In this document: positions 2,145 to 43,610 of the stretch, in pieces
How the letters are laid out: every line of letters starts with the position of its first letter
Numbering within the stretch: position 1 is the first letter of the stretch
Assembly: GCA_017482465.1 (NCBI GenBank)
Contig: JAFUMW010000018.1
Span: 663 to 64,662 of the forward strand
DNA length: 64,000 nucleotides
Source of the DNA: Clostridia bacterium
Lineage (GTDB): Bacteria > Bacillota > Clostridia > Oscillospirales > CAG-272
Direction of reading: 5' to 3'
Position numbers and translations under genes: made by a program
Notes under the pieces: generated by a model
What the model was told of the DNA's origin: nothing
Databases searched by the model: none
What the model saw: the letters and a program-made list of their open reading frames with translations, nothing else

Positions 2145-2702
2145 ATGGTAGTAGCTGGAGATTTTAAAAACGGAATAACTTTTGACATGGACGGAAATGT
2201 AATGCAGGTCGTTGAATTCCAGCATGTCAAGCCCGGAAAGGGAGCGGCGTTTGTAAGAACCAAGCTCAGAAACGTAATTTCCGGAGCGGTAATTGAAAAG
2301 ACTTTCAGCCCGACTGATAAGTTTGAAAACGCGATCGTTGAAAGAAAGAAGATGCAGTATCTCTACAGTGACGGAGAGCTTTATTACTTCATGGACAACG
2401 AAACATTCGAGCAGATCCCGCTTGATGCAAATAAGCTTGGCGACAACTTCAAGTTCGTTGCTGAAAATATGGACTGCACTATCGTATCCTACAAGGGGAA
2501 CGTATTCAGCGTAGAGCCCCCCATTTTCGTTGAGCTCGTGGTTGCAGACACTGAGCCCGGCTTCAAGGGTGATACTGCAACAGGCGCATCCAAGCCCGCA
2601 ACTCTTGAAACAGGCGCACAGATCAAGGTTCCGCTCTTTATCAACACCGGAGACGTTCTCAAAATTGATACACGTACCGGAGAATATATCGAAAGAGTAT
2701 AA
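2145..2702 (+). CDS. efp: Elongation factor P
   Basis: [43 protein letters not shown] is a canonical EF-P N-terminus. GGAGG at 2133-2137 supports the ATG at 2145 rather than the track start at 2085. Confidence 0.95.
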
Positions 2703-2719
2703 TCAAACAAAGCAAACGG

Positions 2720-2751
2720 GAAAGTTTCATTTCATTAGAGATGAAACTTTC
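2720..2751 (+). terminator. Hairpin downstream of efp (possible terminator, weak U-tract)
   Basis: 11-bp stem GAAAGTTTCAT / ATGAAACTTTC with a 10-nt loop. It is followed by ACTTATATAA rather than a clean T-run. Confidence 0.4.
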
Positions 2752-2791
2752 ACTTATATAAAGCCGCAAAAGCGGCGGATTGGAGAAAATT

Positions 2792-3259
2792 ATGACACTT
2801 ACTGAAAAGGTTGCTTACCTCAAGGGACTCATCGAAGGACTTCAGATCGACGAAAGCAAGCCCGAAAACAAGATCATCAAGGCAATGGTCGATGTTATCG
2901 ACGACCTTGCGCTTACTGTTACCGATCTTGAGGACGAGGTAGACGCACTTGACGAGTATATCGAGGAGATCGACGACGATCTCGCCGCTATCGAGGACAT
3001 CGCCTACGAGGACGACGATTACGAGGACGACGAGGATGTCGAGGACGATGAATTCGAAGAATGGGACGAAGATGACGACGAAGAAGACAGTGAGTTTTAT
3101 GAGGTAATGTGTCCTCATTGCGGTGAAGTCGTATATCTTGATGATGATATTGATCCCACTTGCGTTACATGCCCCGCATGCATCAATAAGTTTGATATCA
3201 CAGAGGACGCTTGCTCGCCTGAGGATTGCGAAGGCTGCAGCGGTTGCTCGGACAAGTAA
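2792..3259 (+). CDS. Highly acidic protein with a C-terminal CxxC...CxxC zinc ribbon (resembles proteins annotated 'CD1247 N-terminal domain-containing')
   Basis: GGAG at 2782-2785 is 6 nt before the ATG at 2792. The track start at 2780 is TTG. It has a central D/E run (EDDDYEDDEDVEDDEFEEWDEDDDEED) followed by CPHCGE...CVTCPAC. Confidence 0.7.
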   Translation: MTLTEKVAYLKGLIEGLQIDESKPENKIIKAMVDVIDDLALTVTDLEDEVDALDEYIEEIDDDLAAIEDIAYEDDDYEDDEDVEDDEFEEWDEDDDEEDSEFYEVMCPHCGEVVYLDDDIDPTCVTCPACINKFDITEDACSPEDCEGCSGCSDK

Positions 3260-3270
3260 TTAATCGAAAA

Positions 3271-3307
3271 GCAAAGCCGAAACGGTTTCCGTTTCGGCTT
3301 TTTCTTT
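3271..3307. terminator. Bidirectional intrinsic terminator between convergent genes
   Basis: Stem AAAGCCGAAACGG / CCGTTTCGGCTTT followed by TTTTCTTT on the plus strand and by an A-run (T-run on minus) upstream. It sits between the 2792..3259(+) and 3306..4016(-) genes. Confidence 0.75.
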
Positions 3308-4016
3308 ATTCCTTTGTGCCACAAATGTGCTTTTGAAGCAGGTCGGGGAAGTTTACGGTCATTCCGTCGACCTTAAGCTCACACATTTTTTTCATAAGCT
3401 CGGTGTTACTAACACCCCATGCTCTTACTCCCAGATTTTTTGATCTGAGCATTTGCATAAGTTCTTTTGTAATGTTTTCTGCCTTTGGAGCTATTTCCTC
3501 GCCGCCTATTTCGAGCAGACGCTCTACGCTTTGCTCATCCGGATTAACGATGAGCCAACCGATGCGGGCAGACTTGTCGGCGTCTTTTATGTTTTTCAGA
3601 TAATCAAAAGCAAACGAGGTGAAAGTCGTTTTTTCCATTATTCCAAATTCTTTTGTAAGCTTAAGCACGTCTGCCTCGATACCGTTGTCCTTAAGCTCAA
3701 TGGCGAAATTGATATCATATGAGGCAAAATGCTCTAAAAATTCACGGAAGGTTACGATCCTGTCATAAAATCCGATATTCGGAGTTTTGTATATCTTTAT
3801 CTGCTTCAGCTCGTGCAGAGTAAGATCATTAACGCGTGAGCTTATTTCAGCAACACGCTCAAGCGTATCGTCGTGAAACAGTATAAGCTCTCCGTCCTTG
3901 CTGCGTCTTACGTCGGTTTCTATTCCGTTAGCATTCTGGAGCAGACCGAGATAGAACGAGGAAAGTGTGTTTTCGGGTGCATATTGGCTTGCGCCGCGGT
4001 GTGCGTAGTTGATCAT
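3306..4016 (-). CDS. Glycerophosphodiester phosphodiesterase (GDPD family)
   Basis: INYAHRGAS..APENTL...ETDVRRSKDGELILFHDDTL are GDPD catalytic motifs. The start was moved to Met12 (ATG 4016, AGAGG RBS) because the longer track ORF runs through the upstream gene's terminator hairpin. Confidence 0.85.
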   Translation of the reverse strand: MINYAHRGASQYAPENTLSSFYLGLLQNANGIETDVRRSKDGELILFHDDTLERVAEISSRVNDLTLHELKQIKIYKTPNIGFYDRIVTFREFLEHFASYDINFAIELKDNGIEADVLKLTKEFGIMEKTTFTSFAFDYLKNIKDADKSARIGWLIVNPDEQSVERLLEIGGEEIAPKAENITKELMQMLRSKNLGVRAWGVSNTELMKKMCELKVDGMTVNFPDLLQKHICGTKE

Positions 4017-4073: not shown

Positions 4074-5732
4074 TTATGCCATTGCGTTCGGGAAGAGAGC
4101 GTAGAACCATTCGTTGTATTTGAAAGCAAGACCTTCTTCATCCTCGAAGGAGATATACTTTGTTACAGTAGGATCAGCTCTGAGCTCTTCGATTGCTGTT
4201 GCCAGCCATGTATCAAACTGTGCATATGAAACCGAATCAAGCTCAGCGAAATATTTTTCGCTGATTTTTGCGATATCATCCATAATAGCTTCATCTACAG
4301 CATCTTCATGGAAGAAACCGAAGTAGGGGTCGTCGACGATCTCAAGGTTCTGAGCTTTGCAGTTATCCCAGATGTCGGGTGACGAGCCTTCAGGCGGGTA
4401 TGCAATAAACATGTTACCGGTATACTCAAGAGGAGTGTCGTAATCGGAGTTAAGAGTTCTTACAACTCCGTCAGCATCGAGAGTATAGTGAACATCTTTA
4501 ATGCCGTAAGCAAAGATATTACGCAGAGTCGAGTTTGTGTTAAGTGCGGTAAGCACTTCCATGGATCTTGTGATATCTTTTGTGTATGTGGATATAGCAA
4601 ACATATTTGAGTAAACGGTATTGTCAACATGAGGCTTCTGAAGAACCACTACCTCGTATTCATCCTGATACTTTTCAATGTCAGCGGCATTACCCTTTAC
4701 TATACCAACGGCAAACTCGCCGATGTCTGCTGTACCGTCGCCTAAATAACCGAGTGACTGGTACTTCTTGAGCTGCTTAATGTGGTCAACATAAGAAGTG
4801 ATAGTAAAGAGAATTCTCGGTACACCGTATGCGTCGGCGCTCTTCTGAGCGGAAGCCGCGAGCATGTTACCTACGACCGACTTTTCTCCGTCCTTTGTGA
4901 AGTACTGAATACCAATGGGGTCGAATTCGCCGAGAACGGGAACTATACCGGGTTCATTTGCCGCAACGTCCATTATGAACTCATCAGCGGTGCTGAACAG
5001 CGGGATATCAGCCGCATCATAGTAGTACTTGTCAAGAAGTGCCTTATTAAGGAGCATGTATGTATATTCGCCGATCGGCTTATTGTTGATTATACCGTAT
5101 GTAGCGTTGCCGATCTTGGAAGCTGAAAGAATATTCGGATGAATATATGTTTTCATAAGCTTGCCGGTGGAATTGAGCTCAGTGTCAAGAACCGAAAGAT
5201 GGCCTGCTTCCTGGTATTCAACAAATGTGTGGTAGTCGGGAATAAAGAAAATATCGAGCTGAGAGGGATCGGGTTCGGGATAGATCACCTCAACGATACC
5301 GATCTCGTTTATAGAAGTAAGATCCTCGGAAACTGTTTCTACCGACTCTTCCTCTTTATTGTTCTTGTAAAGCATTGCAACAGCCTTCTTCTGATCGGCT
5401 TCGGCCTGTTCAAGCTTTTTCTGATCGGCTATCTCTTCAAGACGAACTTCAAGGTTTTCCTTATATTCGTCGTATGTGAAAAGGTTGAGCTGTAAAGCTG
5501 TGTTGAATTCAGACTGTGTTACAGCGCTCATTGCTTCTTCAACAAGCGCAACGGCTTCGTCTGTAGTGTTATCGCCCTTGATACCCCAAAGAGTGACCGT
5601 CATGGCGGGCGACTCGTTCGAGCCATCGTTAAGCGTTATTGTGTCAATATCCTCTTCTCCGCCGCAAGCTGTGATAAAGCAGGTTGCGAGAAGAACCATA
5701 GCCAAAAGCAGACATTGTAATCTTTTTTTCAT
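4074..5732 (-). CDS. Large extracellular solute-binding lipoprotein (ABC-type SBP family), orphan
   Basis: Lipoprotein signal MKKRLQCLLLAMVLLATCFITAC|GG. About 550 aa, like the LplA-type sugar-binding lipoproteins of Firmicutes. No permease or ATPase genes are adjacent. Confidence 0.6.
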   Translation of the reverse strand: MKKRLQCLLLAMVLLATCFITACGGEEDIDTITLNDGSNESPAMTVTLWGIKGDNTTDEAVALVEEAMSAVTQSEFNTALQLNLFTYDEYKENLEVRLEEIADQKKLEQAEADQKKAVAMLYKNNKEEESVETVSEDLTSINEIGIVEVIYPEPDPSQLDIFFIPDYHTFVEYQEAGHLSVLDTELNSTGKLMKTYIHPNILSASKIGNATYGIINNKPIGEYTYMLLNKALLDKYYYDAADIPLFSTADEFIMDVAANEPGIVPVLGEFDPIGIQYFTKDGEKSVVGNMLAASAQKSADAYGVPRILFTITSYVDHIKQLKKYQSLGYLGDGTADIGEFAVGIVKGNAADIEKYQDEYEVVVLQKPHVDNTVYSNMFAISTYTKDITRSMEVLTALNTNSTLRNIFAYGIKDVHYTLDADGVVRTLNSDYDTPLEYTGNMFIAYPPEGSSPDIWDNCKAQNLEIVDDPYFGFFHEDAVDEAIMDDIAKISEKYFAELDSVSYAQFDTWLATAIEELRADPTVTKYISFEDEEGLAFKYNEWFYALFPNAMA

Positions 5733-37102: not shown

Positions 37103-38308
37103 ATGAAAAAATGGTCGACCATCGCGTGTGACCAATACACGAGCGAGGCTGGCTATTGGAGCGAGGTCGAAGCTCTTGTTGGGGAATCAGAGTCTGCACT
37201 CCGTGTTACTCTGCCCGAGATATACCTCGAAGGAGAAACGGCAGAGCGCATCATAAATATCAACAAGACGATGCACGAGTATACGGCAAACACGCTTGAC
37301 TGCTTTAAGGATTGCGAGATATATCTTGAGCGTACACTTGCCGACGGCCGCGTAAGACACGGACTTATAGGTAAGATAGACCTTGAAAAATACGATTACA
37401 CAAAGGGCGCGCAAACTCTTGTCCGCGCGACCGAGGGAACAGTGCTTTCGCGTATTCCTCCGAGAGTAGAGATACGCCGCGGCGCAGAGATCGAGCTTCC
37501 GCACGTGATGATGCTTATAGACGACCGTGACAACAGCGTTATGGGTGCGCTTGAGGAAGGAAAGCCCCTCTTTGAAACGGCTTACGACTTTGAGCTTATG
37601 CAGAACGGCGGCTCGGTCAAGGGGTATTTTGTTGACGCCGCTACGCAGAAAAAGGTCAATGCCGCGCTTGAAGCGCTCTGCGACATTGACGCGTATAATA
37701 AAAAGTACGGCGTAAATGAAAAAGCGCCCATGCTTTTTGCTGTGGGCGACGGAAATCATTCGCTTGCGAGCGCAAAGGCGTTGTACGAGGAAATAAAGGC
37801 AAAGCTCGGCGAAGCGGCAAAGGATCATCCCGCGAGATACGCGCTTGTAGAGATCGTGAATATCCACGACGCGGCGCTTGAGTTCGAGCCGATCTATCGT
37901 GTAGTGTTCGATACCGATACAAATAAGATCATGAGTGAGCTTAAGGCGTACGCAGAGGCTGATAAGGGCGGCGAGAACGCGTTTGAGATCGAGTGTATTG
38001 GTAAGAGAGTAAACGAAAGGATCGTTATTAAAAATTCAAAGGATGAGCTTGCGGTCGGCGCGCTTCAGGCGTTCTTGGATGCCTACCTTGAAAAGAACGC
38101 AGGCAAGATCGACTACATACACGGAATCGAGTCGACAAAAACGCTTGCCGATGCCGATAACGCAATAGGCTTTATTTTCGAGGGCATGAGCAAGAACGCG
38201 CTGTTCAAGAGCGTAATTGTCGGTGGCTCGCTTCCCAGAAAGACTTTCTCAATGGGAGAAGCAAACGACAAGAGATATTATCTTGAAGCAAGAAAGATCG
38301 TCGAGTGA
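37103..38308 (+). CDS. DUF1015-family protein
   Basis: About 400 aa. ACDQYTSE, LIGKIDLE, FAVGDGNHS motifs match my recollection of DUF1015. Confidence 0.65.
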   Translation: MKKWSTIACDQYTSEAGYWSEVEALVGESESALRVTLPEIYLEGETAERIININKTMHEYTANTLDCFKDCEIYLERTLADGRVRHGLIGKIDLEKYDYTKGAQTLVRATEGTVLSRIPPRVEIRRGAEIELPHVMMLIDDRDNSVMGALEEGKPLFETAYDFELMQNGGSVKGYFVDAATQKKVNAALEALCDIDAYNKKYGVNEKAPMLFAVGDGNHSLASAKALYEEIKAKLGEAAKDHPARYALVEIVNIHDAALEFEPIYRVVFDTDTNKIMSELKAYAEADKGGENAFEIECIGKRVNERIVIKNSKDELAVGALQAFLDAYLEKNAGKIDYIHGIESTKTLADADNAIGFIFEGMSKNALFKSVIVGGSLPRKTFSMGEANDKRYYLEARKIVE

Positions 38309-38310
38309 GA

Positions 38311-38365
38311 AAGAAATAAAACAAACCGGGGAGCTTAAAATACTTCCCGGTTTGTTATTCTTGTA
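38311..38365. terminator. Bidirectional intrinsic terminator at the left edge of the AT-rich island
   Basis: ACAAACCGGGGAG (38321-38333) pairs with CTTCCCGGTTTGT (38343-38355), 13 bp with one mismatch. T-rich tails follow on both strands (plus TTATTCTTGT, minus TTTTATTTCTTTC). The right arm encodes the last codons of the JAB gene. Confidence 0.75.
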
Positions 38366-38757
38366 TCTTGTTTTATTACGTTGTTTTTAGTAACAGAATA
38401 TAGAGTGAGTGTTTTCTTTGGTGTTAGAACAATCCCGAGTAGTATTTGTGACAGATTGTTTGTGGAAATTATTTGTCGCATGTAATATATATCCTCGCTT
38501 GAGGGCTCGATGTTTTGGTGATGGCTGTGTACTATACCGGCAAAAATTATATTATATTCTCTCCATATTTCAATAGTTTTTTCAAGCATTTTGCAGTTTG
38601 GAGAATATGACCTTGGCGAACAAACAGACGGTGTAATATCTAATTCAAAAAAAGATATTACACCGTTTTTGGTGCCTATAATTCCGCCTTGCTCAAATTT
38701 AGGCGAAACTAACAAATTAACAACATTTTTGTAAGTTTTTTGGGAAATCAAAAGCAC
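38335..38757 (-). CDS. JAB/MPN-family (Prok-JAB-like) zinc metalloprotease
   Basis: 140 aa. Conserved Glu context FEQGGIIG, then GIVHSHHQNIEPSSED, which fits the JAMM motif HxH-x6-SxxD. GTG start directly after the upstream TAA, with GGGAG 9 nt upstream. Confidence 0.7.
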   Translation of the reverse strand: MLLISQKTYKNVVNLLVSPKFEQGGIIGTKNGVISFFELDITPSVCSPRSYSPNCKMLEKTIEIWREYNIIFAGIVHSHHQNIEPSSEDIYYMRQIISTNNLSQILLGIVLTPKKTLTLYSVTKNNVIKQDTRITNREVF

Positions 38758-38958
38758 TTATCGCTTCTCCCAACTTGAACATGATGTGTTTGTTTGAGGA
38801 TTTCGGTATGTAGATTTTTCTTTACACCAAAAATAAACGGGTGTATCTTTGGTCGGCCGAGAATAATCGAGATAGCGACATTCTCCGCATAGAGTTGTTT
38901 CGCAAAATTTTCCTTTAGGAATTATAATGTCTTTCATGTTTTTTTCTTTACTTATCAT
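38758..38958 (-). CDS. Small Cys-rich protein (59-66 aa; start ambiguous, ATG 38958 or 38937)
   Basis: Track ORF 38758..39006, shortened because its 5' part overlaps the zinc-finger gene. Contains FCETTLCGECRYLDY...YFWCKEK...SCSSWE (5 Cys). Its stop abuts the JAB start codon. Confidence 0.4.
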   Translation of the reverse strand: MISKEKNMKDIIIPKGKFCETTLCGECRYLDYSRPTKDTPVYFWCKEKSTYRNPQTNTSCSSWEKR

Positions 38959-39127
38959 ATGGATTTTTTCCGCTACCAAGGCATGCGGCGCATTCTTTGC
39001 GACCATCGCCGTTACAGTAACCGCACTTTTTTTCAGTATTTCTGGGATCTTTTCCGGATCCTTTACAAACGGGGCAAATGATTTTTCCGTTTCCGTTACA
39101 TTCTCTGCAAGTTGACATAACTTTCAT
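38948..39127 (-). CDS. Mini-protein made of four DnaJ-type CxxCxGxG zinc-finger motifs (56-59 aa); not in the ORF track
   Basis: My minus-strand translation: M(KVM)STCRECNGNGKIICPVCKGSGKDPRNTEKKCGYCNGDGRKECAACLGSGKNPYDK*. It has four perfect CxxCxGxG repeats. AAGGAAAGGA RBS. Start ATG 39127 or 39118. Confidence 0.6.
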   Translation of the reverse strand: MKVMSTCRECNGNGKIICPVCKGSGKDPRNTEKKCGYCNGDGRKECAACLGSGKNPYDK

Positions 39128-39136
39128 TCCTTTCCT

Positions 39137-39250
39137 TCAGTTTTCCTCAAATTCAGGACATGCAATGTTTTCGGGACGTACATGCTCATCCTTTATCTCG
39201 CAGTAGTTTTCCCTTGAGCAATGTTTGCAATCAGCACACGTTTCTTTCAT
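39137..39250 (-). CDS. 37-aa Cys-rich micro-protein; not in the ORF track
   Basis: My translation: MKETCADCKHCSRENYCEIKDEHVRPENIACPEFEEN*. GGAGG lies 8 nt upstream. Its ATG overlaps the upstream gene's TGA (ATGA at 39247-39250). Confidence 0.5.
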   Translation of the reverse strand: MKETCADCKHCSRENYCEIKDEHVRPENIACPEFEEN

Positions 39251-40329
39251 TTTATTTCCTCCTGTTTTGTTAATTGTTCTACTTTTTCTTTGAGCAAATT
39301 GGAATTCTCATAACACAAATCGGTTGAAAGAATTTTACACGCAACTAGTACAGCAATAGCGTCGCGATATTTGGGTGAATTATAATTGTTTTCTTCTAAT
39401 ATTGTTGGAACAAGTTTTGTGTAAAAGTCGATTTGTTCTTTATCAAGTCTTTTTAATTCATCACTGGAGTTATAAATTGCTTTGTCAAAATTAGATGCTG
39501 CTGAATATATGTTTTGTAAAGCTTGAAGCTTTTCTTTGTCTGGATAATCTTCGCTGTTTATGTAATCGATTTGTTTATTGCTTTTGTTGATAAATTCCGT
39601 TAGTTTTTCGAAGTTTTCTAAAGTTGGAATACGGAAAAACATTTCGTGTTCTACTAATATATCAAAACAAATTGAATACATGGTCAAAGAAGATTTTACA
39701 GCGTCAGTTTTTAACATGTCCATGTACTTTTTGTATGTGTCAGAAGCTTGTTTAATAAGGGTTTCATTTTGTCTATTATGATTTTGATGTGTTAAAGTTT
39801 CGGGAGGAGACACACTGAATTCTATTTCTGTAGATTCACAACCAAATGTTTCAGGTACTTTTTGCCCCTTAGCTACTTCAACTGATATGCTGCTACCATA
39901 TTGAAACGAACGTATCCATGGTATGCTTGCAAGTGCTTGATTTATAGCAAAAGTTAAAGCCTTTATTTGCATATGAGATAACGGGTTTAATCCTAATTGA
40001 AGAAAATTCACAATTAATTCTTCATGACCTTTATCGCCATCGGGGCTTGAGAAACGTTTTTCGAGAACCGAAACTGATGTAGAGGTCAATTCAATGTAAA
40101 ACGGGCGCCCGATTCTTAAAAACCGAATCCAAATCCCATCCATTTTCATTATGCTCTTTACGATACCTTCAACGAGTGCAACGTTTTTATAATCGGAGTA
40201 AAAGCCTTTTAGATAGTTTTGAAAATCTTCTGATTCTTTTTCCGCGTTCGCTTTGTCTTTTTTCTTGACAAAATGATAAATTATTATTCCTACTATTATG
40301 ATTAAAATTAAATTTCCCATATCAAACAT
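39247..40329 (-). CDS. Hypothetical membrane-anchored protein (360 aa, N-terminal TM helix, no recognisable domain)
   Basis: Long ORF in AT-rich DNA. N-terminus MFDMGNLILIIIVGIIIYHFVKKKDK (TM plus positive-inside). The remainder is predicted soluble, with a helical C-terminal half. First gene of the island operon. Confidence 0.6.
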   Translation of the reverse strand: MFDMGNLILIIIVGIIIYHFVKKKDKANAEKESEDFQNYLKGFYSDYKNVALVEGIVKSIMKMDGIWIRFLRIGRPFYIELTSTSVSVLEKRFSSPDGDKGHEELIVNFLQLGLNPLSHMQIKALTFAINQALASIPWIRSFQYGSSISVEVAKGQKVPETFGCESTEIEFSVSPPETLTHQNHNRQNETLIKQASDTYKKYMDMLKTDAVKSSLTMYSICFDILVEHEMFFRIPTLENFEKLTEFINKSNKQIDYINSEDYPDKEKLQALQNIYSAASNFDKAIYNSSDELKRLDKEQIDFYTKLVPTILEENNYNSPKYRDAIAVLVACKILSTDLCYENSNLLKEKVEQLTKQEEIK

Positions 40330-40345: not shown

Positions 40346-40389
40346 CGAATTTGTTCCTTTCTTGTTATATTGGGTGTGGTTGCCAGATT

Positions 40390-40408
40390 ATGTAACAAAT
40401 CGTTACAT
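40390..40408. promoter_or_regulatory. Palindromic operator O1 in the divergent control region
   Basis: ATGTAAC-AAATC-GTTACAT, a perfect 7-5-7 inverted repeat. Confidence 0.6.
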
Positions 40409-40412
40409 AATT

Positions 40413-40433
40413 ATTGTAACACAATGTTACAAT
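40413..40433. promoter_or_regulatory. Palindromic operator O2 in the divergent control region
   Basis: ATTGTAAC-ACAAT-GTTACAAT, a perfect 8-5-8 inverted repeat sharing the TGTAAC-N5-GTTACA core with O1. The centres are 24 bp apart. TACAAT-like -10 hexamers are embedded on both strands. Confidence 0.6.
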
Positions 40434-40465
40434 AATGTCAAGATATTTTTTGGAGATTTTGGTTT

Positions 40466-40684
40466 ATGAAAATGGAAGGCTTGAAAAGAATACGTAAGGC
40501 AAAAGGCTACAATCAACTCAAGGTAGCGTTTGCCTTGAATATAAGCCGTGAAGCATTGTCGTATTATGAAAACGGCAAACGTAGCCCGGATATAGATATG
40601 CTTTTGAAAATGTCCGAGTATTTTGATGTGTCTATACATTATTTGGTCACGGGAAAAGAATTCGAATCCAAATACAAAAATTAA
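40466..40684 (+). CDS. XRE/Cro-CI-family helix-turn-helix transcriptional regulator
   Basis: 72 aa. LKRIRKAKGYNQLKVAFALNISREALSYYENGKRSPDIDMLLKMSEYFDVSIHYLV is a textbook HTH_3 domain. GGAG RBS at 40448-40451. Confidence 0.85.
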   Translation: MKMEGLKRIRKAKGYNQLKVAFALNISREALSYYENGKRSPDIDMLLKMSEYFDVSIHYLVTGKEFESKYKN

Positions 40685-40718
40685 AACAGGACTGTTCCGT
40701 TTTGGAAACAGTCCTGTT
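40685..40718. terminator. Bidirectional intrinsic terminator at the right edge of the island
   Basis: AACAGGACTGTTCC ... GGAAACAGTCCTGTT stem (one bulge). T-rich tails on both strands (minus TTTTAATTTTT, plus GTATTATTTCTT). Sits between the XRE gene (+) and metI (-). Confidence 0.75.
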
Positions 40719-40721
40719 GTA

Positions 40722-41426
40722 TTATTTCTTAAGTCTTTTATCCGACTTTGCCGCAAGGCGTGTGCCGATGCTCTGGAATATCTGCACCATTACAATAAGC
40801 AATATCACCGCTATCAGCATAACAAGGTACTTGTATCTGTAATAGCCGTAGTTTATCGCTATCTTACCAAGTCCGCCGCCGCCGATGATTCCGCTCATCG
40901 CGCTGTAACCGAGTATCGTTATCACCGCTGTTGTTGCGTTTGTTATAAGCGAGGGCACGCTTTCGGGTATCATCACCTTCGTGATTATTTGAAAGGGTGT
41001 CGCGCCCATGCTTTGTGCCGCTTCGATTATGTTTGGGCTGACTTCGCGTAAGCTTGATTCAACAAGTCTCGCCACAAATGGGAACGCCGCTATTACAAGC
41101 GGGACTATCGACGCTACCGTGCCGACTGCAGTTCCCACGATCAGGCGTGTGAGAGGGAAAACAAGTATCATAAGTATCAAAAACGGTACCGAACGCAGAA
41201 GATTTATTACCACGTTAAGTATCTGCATCAACCATGTGGGCAGAGGCAGAACACCGTTTTTCTCTCCGGCGACCAGAAGTACACCGAGCGGAAGTCCGAG
41301 AACTATCGCAAATGCCGTGGACAGAACGGTCACGTAAAGAGTTTCCCACACTGCGGTAGGAAATTCGGAAACAAGTATCGCCAATGCTTCTTGGAATGCC
41401 TCATAAGAAAACACCTTATCAAACAT
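40722..41426 (-). CDS. metI: Methionine ABC transporter permease
   Basis: 234 aa, five TM segments, MetI-type EAA-loop region (EAAQSMGATPFQII). Operon with metN and metQ. Confidence 0.88.
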   Translation of the reverse strand: MFDKVFSYEAFQEALAILVSEFPTAVWETLYVTVLSTAFAIVLGLPLGVLLVAGEKNGVLPLPTWLMQILNVVINLLRSVPFLILMILVFPLTRLIVGTAVGTVASIVPLVIAAFPFVARLVESSLREVSPNIIEAAQSMGATPFQIITKVMIPESVPSLITNATTAVITILGYSAMSGIIGGGGLGKIAINYGYYRYKYLVMLIAVILLIVMVQIFQSIGTRLAAKSDKRLKK

Positions 41427-42510: not shown

Positions 42511-43362
42511 TTATTTAAGTGCGTCAAGGGTTGTCTGCTTGCCGCCGTAGAGACCGAGGGGTTCAACGTGGATAGCAGCCGCGGAAACAATGTGAGTTCC
42601 GTTTTCTGCATTGAAGTCGTCAAGGTAGGGTGTGTGCTGGAAGTAGTTAGCGTCGATCTCGCCGCTTTCAACAACGTTGTTGGGCTGTACATAGTCGGTA
42701 AACTCAATGATATCAAGTGTGATATTCTTTTCGGCAAGGATACCCTTTGCGACAGCAAGGATCTCTGCGTGAGGAGCGGGAGAAGCCGCAACCGATATTG
42801 TTTCGCCGTCAAGCGCCGCGTAGTCAACGTCTGCCGCGTATCCGTCGCCGGGCTCTTCAACAACGCTTACAACGGCGCCTGCATATGTTTCGGTGATATA
42901 ATCTGCAACAGCCTTGCTTTCAAGAGCTGCTACGAGTGCCTTGATCTTGTCTGTGTTCTCATTTCCTTCCTTAACAGCTACGATGTTGCTGTAAGCGGAG
43001 GAGGAGCCTTCCATTTCAAGAGCGTCTTCAATGGGGTTCATTTCAGCGGCGATCGCATAGTTGGAGTTGATTATAGCATAGTCAACATCCTGAAGGATGT
43101 TGGGAAGCTGAGCCGCTTCGACTTCCTTGAATTCAATGTTCTTGGGATTGTTTTCGATGTCGAGGATAGTAGCCGTGATGCCTGCGTCTTCTTTAAGAGT
43201 GATATAGCCGAGAGATTCGAGAAGAAGAAGAGCGCGGGCTTCGTTTGTGGTATCGTTGGGAACAGCAATAGTAAGTGCGCTGTCATTTGAGCAAGAGGAA
43301 AGTGCAAAAGCGGATGTAAGTAAAAGAATTGTTGCGAGAATAAAAGATAATGCCTTTTTCAT
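42511..43362 (-). CDS. metQ: MetQ/NlpA-family methionine-binding lipoprotein
   Basis: Lipobox LSSC after MKKALSFILATILLLTSAFA. NlpA-family body (..DANYFQHTPYL..). Confidence 0.88.
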   Translation of the reverse strand: MKKALSFILATILLLTSAFALSSCSNDSALTIAVPNDTTNEARALLLLESLGYITLKEDAGITATILDIENNPKNIEFKEVEAAQLPNILQDVDYAIINSNYAIAAEMNPIEDALEMEGSSSAYSNIVAVKEGNENTDKIKALVAALESKAVADYITETYAGAVVSVVEEPGDGYAADVDYAALDGETISVAASPAPHAEILAVAKGILAEKNITLDIIEFTDYVQPNNVVESGEIDANYFQHTPYLDDFNAENGTHIVSAAAIHVEPLGLYGGKQTTLDALK

Positions 43363-43437
43363 GATTGTTTCTCCTTTAATATATGAAAATTAATTAGGGA
43401 ACGATTTTGAGTCGGAGCTGCAGCGTACGCAAAAGCG

Positions 43438-43474
43438 AAATCAAATAAGGGAAGCCTCCGATGAAGCTTCCCCC
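43438..43474 (-). terminator. Intrinsic terminator/attenuator in the metQNI leader
   Basis: On the minus strand, GGGAAGC-ttcatcggag-GCTTCCC is followed by TTATTTGATTT. It lies about 25 nt after the leader-ORF stop and about 75 nt before the metQ ATG. Confidence 0.55.
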
Positions 43475-43496
43475 GAAATTTCGTTATCGTACAGTT

Positions 43497-43610
43497 TTAT
43501 TCTGCGCGATCTGTGACAGAAAGCATACCGGAATTATCAGCATAGAAAAACTTGCACATGCTGCACATGTACATTTCTGTCATATTCATCATAGTCTGCT
43601 GCTTCTTCAT
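43497..43610 (-). CDS. Putative Met-rich leader peptide (37 aa) of the metQNI operon
   Basis: AAAGGAG is 8 nt before ATG 43610. The peptide is MKKQQTMMNMTEMYMCSMCKFFYADNSGMLSVTDRAE*, with 8 Met and 2 Cys, and 6 of residues 7-18 are Met. This is the internal part of track ORF 43497..43730. Confidence 0.45.
   Translation of the reverse strand: MKKQQTMMNMTEMYMCSMCKFFYADNSGMLSVTDRAE

Follow-up and report, generated by a model that had tools for sequence, protein, structure and literature searches.

The stretch of DNA considered here (64,000 nucleotides of contig JAFUMW010000018.1 from a Clostridia bacterium, GenBank assembly GCA_017482465.1, referred to in the following as the window) contains an island of 2.4 kb that encodes, among other proteins, a mini-protein with four CxxCxGxG motifs, which is the subject of this analysis. 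The island is self-contained, has a guanine-cytosine content of 29-39% vs approximately 50% in the flanks and in the genome, lies between a gene for a 401-amino-acid (aa) protein (37103..38308) and methionine ABC-transporter genes, and consists only of the five genes of an operon and of a gene for a helix-turn-helix (HTH) regulator. The operon genes, all on the minus strand, overlap or abut and encode, in this order, a 360-aa membrane-anchored protein, a 37-aa Cys-rich protein, the mini-protein (a zinc finger), a 59-aa Cys-rich protein and a JAB peptidase (table 1).

In a preliminary description of the window, made from the sequence alone, the minus-strand peptide had been read as made almost entirely of four perfect DnaJ-type motifs. 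Re-translation of 39127..38948 gave the identical product (MKVMSTCRECNGNGKIICPVCKGSGKDPRNTEKKCGYCNGDGRKECAACLGSGKNPYDK, followed by a stop codon), in which CRECNGNG, CPVCKGSG, CGYCNGDG and CAACLGSG are all present, and AAGGAAAGGA stands immediately 5′ of the first ATG. When the 64-kb window is scanned in six frames, exactly four matches to CxxCxGxG are found, all in the frame of the mini-protein and spanning 141 nucleotides; the cluster is far above chance, since composition-matched shuffles (n = 100) yield 0.39 matches per window on average, with a maximum of 3. The start codon is ambiguous (59 vs 56 aa), because the second in-frame ATG (39118), which gives a product beginning MSTCREC, is better spaced from the second AGGA and also agrees with the N-termini of the homologues, where two to three residues precede the first Cys (MTCREC, MSRCKEC, MAKCREC).

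An index of 5.8 billion proteins returned the identical protein (P0001) and three relatives, and scanning genomes and metagenomes for the motif pattern brought in further homologues. Six homologues of full length, taken from different assemblies and sharing 54-70% identity, are invariant in all eight Cys residues, in most of the motif Gly residues, in the CPVC of the second motif and in the K-D-P-R of the linker that follows it. In a codon alignment of these six, the ratio of non-synonymous to synonymous differences (pN/pS) is 0.18-0.45 in all 15 pairs, and variation over the 55 codons is concentrated in the third position (52 codons, compared with 33 for the first and 27 for the second). On the evidence of this purifying selection, the open reading frame (ORF) of the mini-protein is a genuine protein-coding gene, and homologues of it are called as genes in several assemblies.

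The 62-aa antisense ORF pointed out in the preliminary description does exist, and conservation of the opposite strand at the expense of the motif frame had been named there as an outcome that would count against the mini-protein. The reverse was found: the motifs are conserved in the six homologues, whereas the antisense frame, with a pN/pS averaging 1.50 in the same codon alignment, is under no such constraint. Considered as a real gene, the antisense ORF was therefore rejected (approximately 1.5 vs 0.18-0.45) and, on this comparison, it is an artefact, which stays open only because, in reverse, codons for Cys and Gly become codons for Ala, Thr, Ser and Pro. One metagenome assembly of the European Nucleotide Archive called it as a protein-coding gene (P0216). 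A similar antisense ORF is open in several homologous loci, so that Cys/Gly-rich genes systematically mislead gene callers in this way.

The statement that the mini-protein is unannotated is indirectly supported by the NCBI record of this metagenome-assembled genome, in which the JAB gene is IJ391_01165 and the gene upstream, in a 357-aa form of the 360-aa protein, is IJ391_01170; since these tags of the Prokaryotic Genome Annotation Pipeline are consecutive, no annotated gene lies between the two, which indirectly indicates that all three small ORFs (37 aa, mini-protein and 59 aa) are unannotated. The zinc finger of a related locus, L049 (loci from the comparative search are numbered L002 and so on), is likewise unannotated. 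Homologues of the 37-aa ORF adjoin zinc-finger genes in L011 (ending ...ACPEFEEN) and L023, with pN/pS of 0.26-0.68, and the 59-aa ORF has a homologue at the same position in L002 (E 7e-19), with pN/pS of 0.49. Both ORFs are conserved beside zinc-finger genes elsewhere and, as these codon comparisons show, are under purifying selection. Neither product has a Pfam match, and for these two and the 360-aa protein PADLOC, NCBIfam and PHROGs gave no system-level or informative match. Three consecutive conserved ORFs of 37-59 aa between annotated genes clearly illustrate how standard annotation overlooks genuine small genes, with the further lesson that, in one assembly, an antisense artefact was called in place of the real gene.

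Table 1. Features of the island and its boundaries (positions in the window).
Feature	Position	Strand	Remarks
Zinc-finger mini-protein, coding sequence	38948..39127	-	59 aa from ATG at 39127, or 56 aa from ATG at 39118
Ribosome-binding site AAGGAAAGGA	39128..39137	-	between stop of 37-aa ORF and mini-protein start codon
Motif 1, CRECNGNG	39086..39109	-	predicted zinc site 1, with motif 4 (pairing suggested by model bridges)
Motif 2, CPVCKGSG	39053..39076	-	predicted zinc site 2, with motif 3; CPVC invariant in family
Hairpin-tip linker KDPRNTEKK	39026..39052	-	K26 D27 P28 R29 invariant in six close homologues
Motif 3, CGYCNGDG	39002..39025	-	position from six-frame motif scan
Motif 4, CAACLGSG	38969..38992	-	position from six-frame motif scan
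Antisense ORF, 62 aa	38927..39115	+	not a gene; pN/pS averages 1.50
360-aa protein, first operon gene	39247..40329	-	N-terminal transmembrane helix, then KKKDK; no family assigned
37-aa Cys-rich ORF MKETCADCKHCSRENYCEIKDEHVRPENIACPEFEEN	39137..39250	-	unannotated; ATG overlaps stop of 360-aa gene
59-aa Cys-rich ORF MKDIIIPKGKFCETTLCGECRYLD...SCSSWEKR	38758..38937	-	unannotated; abuts JAB start codon
JAB/JAMM metallopeptidase, 140 aa	38335..38757	-	PADLOC JAB E 2.3e-5
Promoter TTGACA-17-TGtTACAAT	40441..40413	-	near-consensus; two perfect palindromes in tandem overlap it
Palindromes ATTATTGTAACA-ttg-TGTTACAATAAT and ATTATGTAAC-gattt-GTTACATAAT	40387..40441	-	promoter with probable operators; palindromes at 40387-40436; half-site TTAT(T)GTAAC
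XRE-family HTH regulator, 72 aa, divergent	40466..40684	+	PADLOC HTH_VI E 2.8e-14; RstR-type E 1.8e-13; phrog_8 E 3e-18
Hairpin terminator at JAB end	38308..38368		island boundary with 401-aa gene (37103..38308)
Hairpin terminator after HTH gene	40676..40727		island boundary with methionine ABC-transporter permease gene

The mini-protein is a stand-alone zinc-finger protein of the Cys-rich (CR) type, i.e. of the type found in DnaJ and in BSD2. The DnaJ assignment that had been suggested on the basis of the motifs narrowly fails as far as the Pfam profile is concerned (PF00684 DnaJ_CXXCXGXG: 30.6 bits, E 4.1e-7, gathering cut-off 32.7), although PF00684 is the family given for the identical protein P0001 in precomputed tables, while PF25436 BSD2_CRD passes (31.9 bits, E 1.6e-7, cut-off 27). 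When a profile of the family is compared with the Protein Data Bank (PDB), the best sequence match is the Cys-rich domain of Escherichia coli DnaJ (1EXK, E 8.8e-5). The same motif in four copies is shared with this domain, and the same interleaved two-zinc topology is expected. However, the J domain, the G/F region and the C-terminal substrate-binding domains of DnaJ/Hsp40 are lacking: no J domain (HPD motif) was matched by Pfam or NCBIfam in the mini-protein or in the neighbouring ORFs, TIGR02349 scores 15 bits vs a cut-off of 377, and the stop codon falls six residues past motif 4, leaving no C-terminal domains I/II or dimerisation region. Because of the absence of J domain and C-terminal domains, the mini-protein is not a DnaJ, and its earlier portrayal as a DnaJ-type Cys-rich domain standing alone is borne out.

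A model calculated with AlphaFold from four sequences and no metal is confident (predicted local distance difference test score, pLDDT, 85). Its bridges (6/54, 15-17/43-45 and 26/34) imply that the chain doubles back at KDPRN. The motif spacing (3 residues, a 9-residue tip and 3 residues) follows BSD2 and not DnaJ. According to the model, one zinc ion would be coordinated by motifs 1 and 4 (C7, C10, C46, C49) and a second by motifs 2 and 3 (C18, C21, C35, C38). In a Foldseek search, BSD2 entries (6EKC, 6EKB, 8ILB) rank first, with template-modelling (TM) scores of 0.70-0.73 over 56 columns and a probability of 1.00, compared with 0.40 for the DnaJ domain and 0.48 over 35 columns for anti-TRAP (RtpA of Bacillus; 2BX9, 3LCZ). 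Thus, of the V-shaped two-zinc fold anticipated in the preliminary description, the two-zinc-type hairpin is reproduced, but not the extended V shape, the long beta-hairpin behind which is missing: the predicted fold is the compact hairpin of BSD2. The modelled hairpin appears to be rigid, crescent-like and devoid of an enzymatic site, and its KDPR tip is the family signature and probably a loop that contacts a partner.

BSD2 (or ZnJ2), the Rubisco-assembly factor of plant and algal chloroplasts, is also small, stand-alone and made essentially of four CxxCxGxG motifs, with 3 residues between motifs 1 and 2 and between motifs 3 and 4, and a hairpin loop between motifs 2 and 3; it is, besides, both the Pfam family whose cut-off is passed and the best structural match of the model. 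It binds RbcL as a holding/assembly chaperone, and ZnJ2, which with BSD2 is the closest stand-alone relative to have been characterised, is a holding chaperone with no reductase or oxidase activity (PMC5818400). The differences are, however, considerable. Identity is 25-28%, and the tip has 9 residues (KDPRNxxKx) vs approximately 16 in BSD2; the host, a gut Clostridia bacterium, does not photosynthesise, an XRE repressor controls the mobile low-GC island that carries the gene, and no Rubisco gene is found among the ORFs of the island or its flanks in the window. In the light of the host, the lack of a Rubisco context and the low identity, the mini-protein is not a BSD2 orthologue, and its partner must, therefore, differ from the Rubisco large subunit; functional orthology, for which action on that subunit would be the hallmark, was rejected. 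The BSD2-type compact two-zinc hairpin, previously known from chloroplast Rubisco assembly, is accordingly also a stand-alone family in non-photosynthetic gut bacteria.

When 1.84 billion cluster representatives were searched with a profile, 1050 proteins were matched at E <= 1e-3 but only 26 at E <= 1e-10, and the family is thus rare. The top matches are stand-alone proteins of 52-87 aa with an xDPRx linker (DPR is found in 19 of the 33 small relatives fetched), many of the small relatives ending in an acidic-aromatic tail (DPYD, DPFD, VPDDFxNL, DDDDYRR[TAS]). The mini-protein is thus a member of a distinct xDPRx subfamily within a known class of stand-alone CR-type zinc-finger mini-proteins. 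Small CR-type zinc fingers of phages share the stand-alone domain type (phrog_3931 E 1e-6; BFVD entries of 46-90 aa), but the xDPRx signature was not seen in them and none is close to the mini-protein; a tblastn search with the mini-protein against 50,697 INPHARED phage records gave no match, although the low-complexity filter may have hurt this query. Several of the lower-ranked matches of the metagenome scan are true DnaJ or secreted multi-motif proteins and were set aside. Six viral proteins of 250-570 aa that matched the family alignment in IMG/VR were rejected as members on account of their long CxxCxGxG arrays. Such tandem arrays are found in L018 (6735-8459, with more than a dozen motifs), L016 (1508-2386) and L020 (7701-8525), in proteins unrelated to the mini-protein family beyond the motif.

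Hidden Markov models of the components were scanned over 18 non-redundant loci, and a recurrent gene cassette emerged. Its commonest form (L013, L014, L022, L023 and L049) comprises a divergent XRE HTH gene, a protein of approximately 153 aa (A153), the zinc finger, a 53-aa Cys-rich protein (C53), which is related in pattern to the 37-aa protein of the window (C37), and a small zinc ribbon. Variants of the cassette additionally encode a helical protein of 47-59 aa, a zinc ribbon of a second type, a Cys-rich protein of 59-64 aa or a JAB peptidase. Among the large neighbours of the zinc finger in other genomes, A153 is the most constant (L013 7515-7976, L014 4696-5157, L022 5534-5995, L049 5001-5468 and others), and its family comprises 56 clusters at 90% identity. 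A confident model of A153 was obtained (pLDDT 86), for which a fold search against the PDB found nothing significant (best E 0.012, TM 0.34, weak START/Bet v 1-like noise). Pfam has no match for A153, for a 574-aa protein of L002 or for the other accessory proteins. A153 is absent from the window; residues 33-160 of the 360-aa protein are weakly similar to the N-terminal part of the L002 protein (E 0.002, from a small database), of which the C-terminus is an A153 domain.

The chromosomal sites of the cassette vary between independent genomes: its neighbours include operons for ribosomal proteins, a patatin gene and pyrimidine genes and, in some instances, genes for type IV secretion, a serine recombinase or a primase. 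In L051 (4500-5919, 8043-8462), the zinc finger and A153 are followed by PqqD-like, radical-SAM/SPASM, Sel1-repeat and Hsp70-family genes. The cassette, which moves between chromosomal sites and conjugative elements, is undescribed, no account of it having been found in the literature on small bacterial CxxCxGxG proteins, on DnaJ-like zinc fingers with JAB, and on JAB with a zinc ribbon in conjugative elements. In the window, the island was horizontally acquired, and the gene is part of an accessory, moving module of gut Clostridia; direct repeats, as the mark of an insertion site, were not found on the flanks of the island. The two palindromes that overlap the strong promoter driving the operon are probably operators for the divergent XRE regulator, the gene of which is named helix-turn-helix transcriptional regulator by NCBI; in L007, a different, Arc/CopG-like small regulator is present. 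Scans of the 64-kb window detected no tRNA gene and no Rfam family at the gathering threshold, not even upstream of the methionine ABC-transporter operon (approximately 43360-43500), where a regulatory RNA might be expected.

The mini-protein had been described as lying in the middle of a JAB operon, which holds for the window but not as a rule for the family. The JAB proteins of four cassettes have E22, H77, H79, S86 and D89 invariant, corresponding to the Glu/HxH/S..D motif (metal-binding and catalytic) of the MPN fold, and their four-sequence profile matches, over the full length, the archaeal Rpn11-like 6FJV (E 1.4e-4) and also JAMM1, the single-sequence score for Pfam Prok-JAB being 16, below the cut-off of 25. 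A word-index search with the JAB of the window returned only the query, and relatives were, therefore, located through synteny. Among the ten contexts with enough flanking sequence, JAB is present in four (window, L002, L007 and L047) and absent from six (L014, L022, L025, L026, L049 and L051), so that it is a facultative rather than a defining associate. The small proteins encoded directly upstream of JAB in the four loci have a common N-terminal [IV]x[IL]Pxx(x)F, namely MKDIIIPKGKF in the 59-aa protein of the window (38937-38905), CINLPEGTF in L002 (3837-4031), MRKMIIPKGRF in the zinc finger of L007 (2383-2613) and VVIPTLKF in a zinc ribbon of L047 (5483-5653). The carriers belong to three different families, and the motif may be a JAB-docking strand. 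To judge from this sequence pattern, JAB would work with the small zinc protein, of whatever family, that bears the N-terminal extension, and its probable target or partner in the window is the 59-aa protein rather than the zinc finger. A ubiquitin-like/JAB conjugation system or a defence of the CBASS/Bil type was considered and rejected, no E1/E2, ubiquitin-like or cyclase match being found for the island proteins with Pfam, NCBIfam or PADLOC.

The best explanation overall, to which we assign a probability of roughly 0.55, is that the mini-protein is a zinc-stabilised protein-binding subunit of an XRE-repressed mobile accessory cassette. A protein-binding role is proposed because catalytic features are lacking, the surface is small and rigid, and the relatives BSD2/ZnJ2 and anti-TRAP act by binding (the PDB match list includes the solved complexes of BSD2 with RbcL and of anti-TRAP with TRAP). 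By analogy with these proteins, the mini-protein would work by binding other proteins, with the invariant hairpin tip (KDPR) and the acidic-aromatic C-terminal tail as likely contact elements, and would hold, assemble or restrain a partner encoded by the cassette, the candidates being the 360-aa protein in the window and A153 in most relatives. It may act together with the other small zinc-binding proteins, and the XRE protein would keep the cassette operon repressed. The cassette itself probably serves an accessory conflict or mobile-element function, this being the least certain step. Taken by itself, the mini-protein is unremarkable within a known domain class, and the function given for it here is a proposed one.

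Several observations weigh against this explanation. Because the cassette of the window lacks A153, the proposed partner must vary by locus, and the similarity that could link the 360-aa protein to A153 through the L002 protein is weak. The zinc finger is not obligatory in every version of the cassette, since in L053 A153 occurs with a zinc ribbon and JAB in the absence of the zinc finger. The two zinc sites and the motif pairs that would form them are predicted from a metal-free model. Furthermore, tblastn found no match for the mini-protein among PLSDB plasmids, with the same caveat on the filter as for phages, and none for A153 among INPHARED phages and PLSDB plasmids, and PADLOC-DB v2 gave no defence-system match beyond generic JAB and HTH models (best E for the mini-protein 0.18).

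A more specific proposal, which we entertain only tentatively, is that the mini-protein is the signature subunit of an XRE-repressed mobile conflict cassette (for defence, anti-defence or a function like that of a toxin-antitoxin-chaperone system) built of tiny zinc proteins. Its parts would be the zinc finger, C37/C53, one or two zinc ribbons, the 59-64-aa Cys-rich protein, the approximately 153-aa or membrane-anchored protein and, optionally, JAB; the BSD2-like mini-chaperone would restrain an effector until a trigger or the peptidase frees it. If true, a defence, anti-defence or addiction module of this kind would be of a new type, built around mini zinc proteins.

An alternative modelled on anti-TRAP, in which the mini-protein is no chaperone or assembly subunit but a specific inhibitor (or anti-regulator) that binds and inactivates a single regulatory protein, for example the adjacent XRE repressor, appears unlikely. 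Anti-TRAP is, like the mini-protein, a bacterial stand-alone CxxCxGxG zinc-knuckle protein (approximately 53 aa) which acts by binding and blocking another protein, weak matches to it are obtained (Pfam E 0.023; NCBIfam NF058604 RtpA, 17 bits, E 0.0047; the TM score given above), a divergent XRE gene is present in most cassettes, and the invariant tip loop suggests a single conserved target. However, the RtpA score is far below the equivalog cut-off of 65, and anti-TRAP has two motifs forming one zinc site and a C-terminal oligomerisation helix, vs four motifs and two predicted sites in the mini-protein, the model of which has no helix beyond residues 56-58; because of the score and of the number of motifs, the mini-protein is not an anti-TRAP. 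In addition, the XRE proteins vary across cassettes (72 to 116 aa, and in architecture) while the tip loop is invariant, and the regulator of L007 is of the Arc/CopG-like type.

A redox function of the mini-protein, as an active thiol-disulfide protein or as a zinc/redox sensor, is improbable. The idea draws on eight cysteines within 56 residues and on the reductase/oxidase activity in vitro of the DnaJ Cys-rich domain (cited in PMC5818400), but ZnJ2, a stand-alone relative, has neither activity, the cytoplasm of the host, an anaerobe of the gut, is reducing, Pfam and NCBIfam reveal no thioredoxin-like or redox gene in the island, and the Gly residues of every CxxCxGxG are conserved, consistent with structural zinc knuckles. 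Nothing in the analysis points to the thiol-disulfide activity known for DnaJ-type domains as being a property of the mini-protein.

Very improbable, in turn, is that the small Cys-rich ORFs, including the mini-protein, are precursors of ribosomally synthesised modified peptides with JAB as the processing peptidase. Several tiny Cys-rich ORFs do occur together with a peptidase, and radical-SAM/SPASM genes do adjoin the cassette in L051, with the PqqD-like gene, and in L052, with a 35-aa GG-Cys-rich ORF. On the other hand, no modifying enzyme is encoded in the island of the window or in most cassettes, conservation runs along the entire length of the mini-protein with no leader/core split, the zinc-finger fold is confidently predicted and supported by the Pfam match, and JAB is missing from 6 of the 10 contexts. 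Finally, a nonfunctional ORF (a chance ORF, a decayed dnaJ fragment or an antisense shadow), to which its shortness, its lack of NCBI annotation and the preference of one assembly's gene caller for the antisense ORF might point, is effectively refuted by comparative sequence data, given that purifying selection is confined to the sense frame, that the four motifs and the linker are kept at 54-70% identity in six genomes, and that the ORF has a ribosome-binding site and an operon setting; a dnaJ pseudogene fragment, in particular, was rejected in view of that selection and of flanks free of J-domain or DnaJ C-terminal sequence.

Two minor observations concern genes near the cassette in other loci. 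In L052, the 35-aa ORF (4520-4627) has a GG-CDHIKCKLCQY core, with the radical-SAM gene (2445-3518) and A153 adjacent, and resembles a modified-peptide precursor. A C53-like Cys-rich domain is fused, in L025 (51-530) and L052 (1661-2116), to a C-terminal domain starting with GCY[IL][AT]T[SA]; the same domain, which had no family match in the searches run, also ends a 337-aa Sel1-like protein of L002 (4423-5436).

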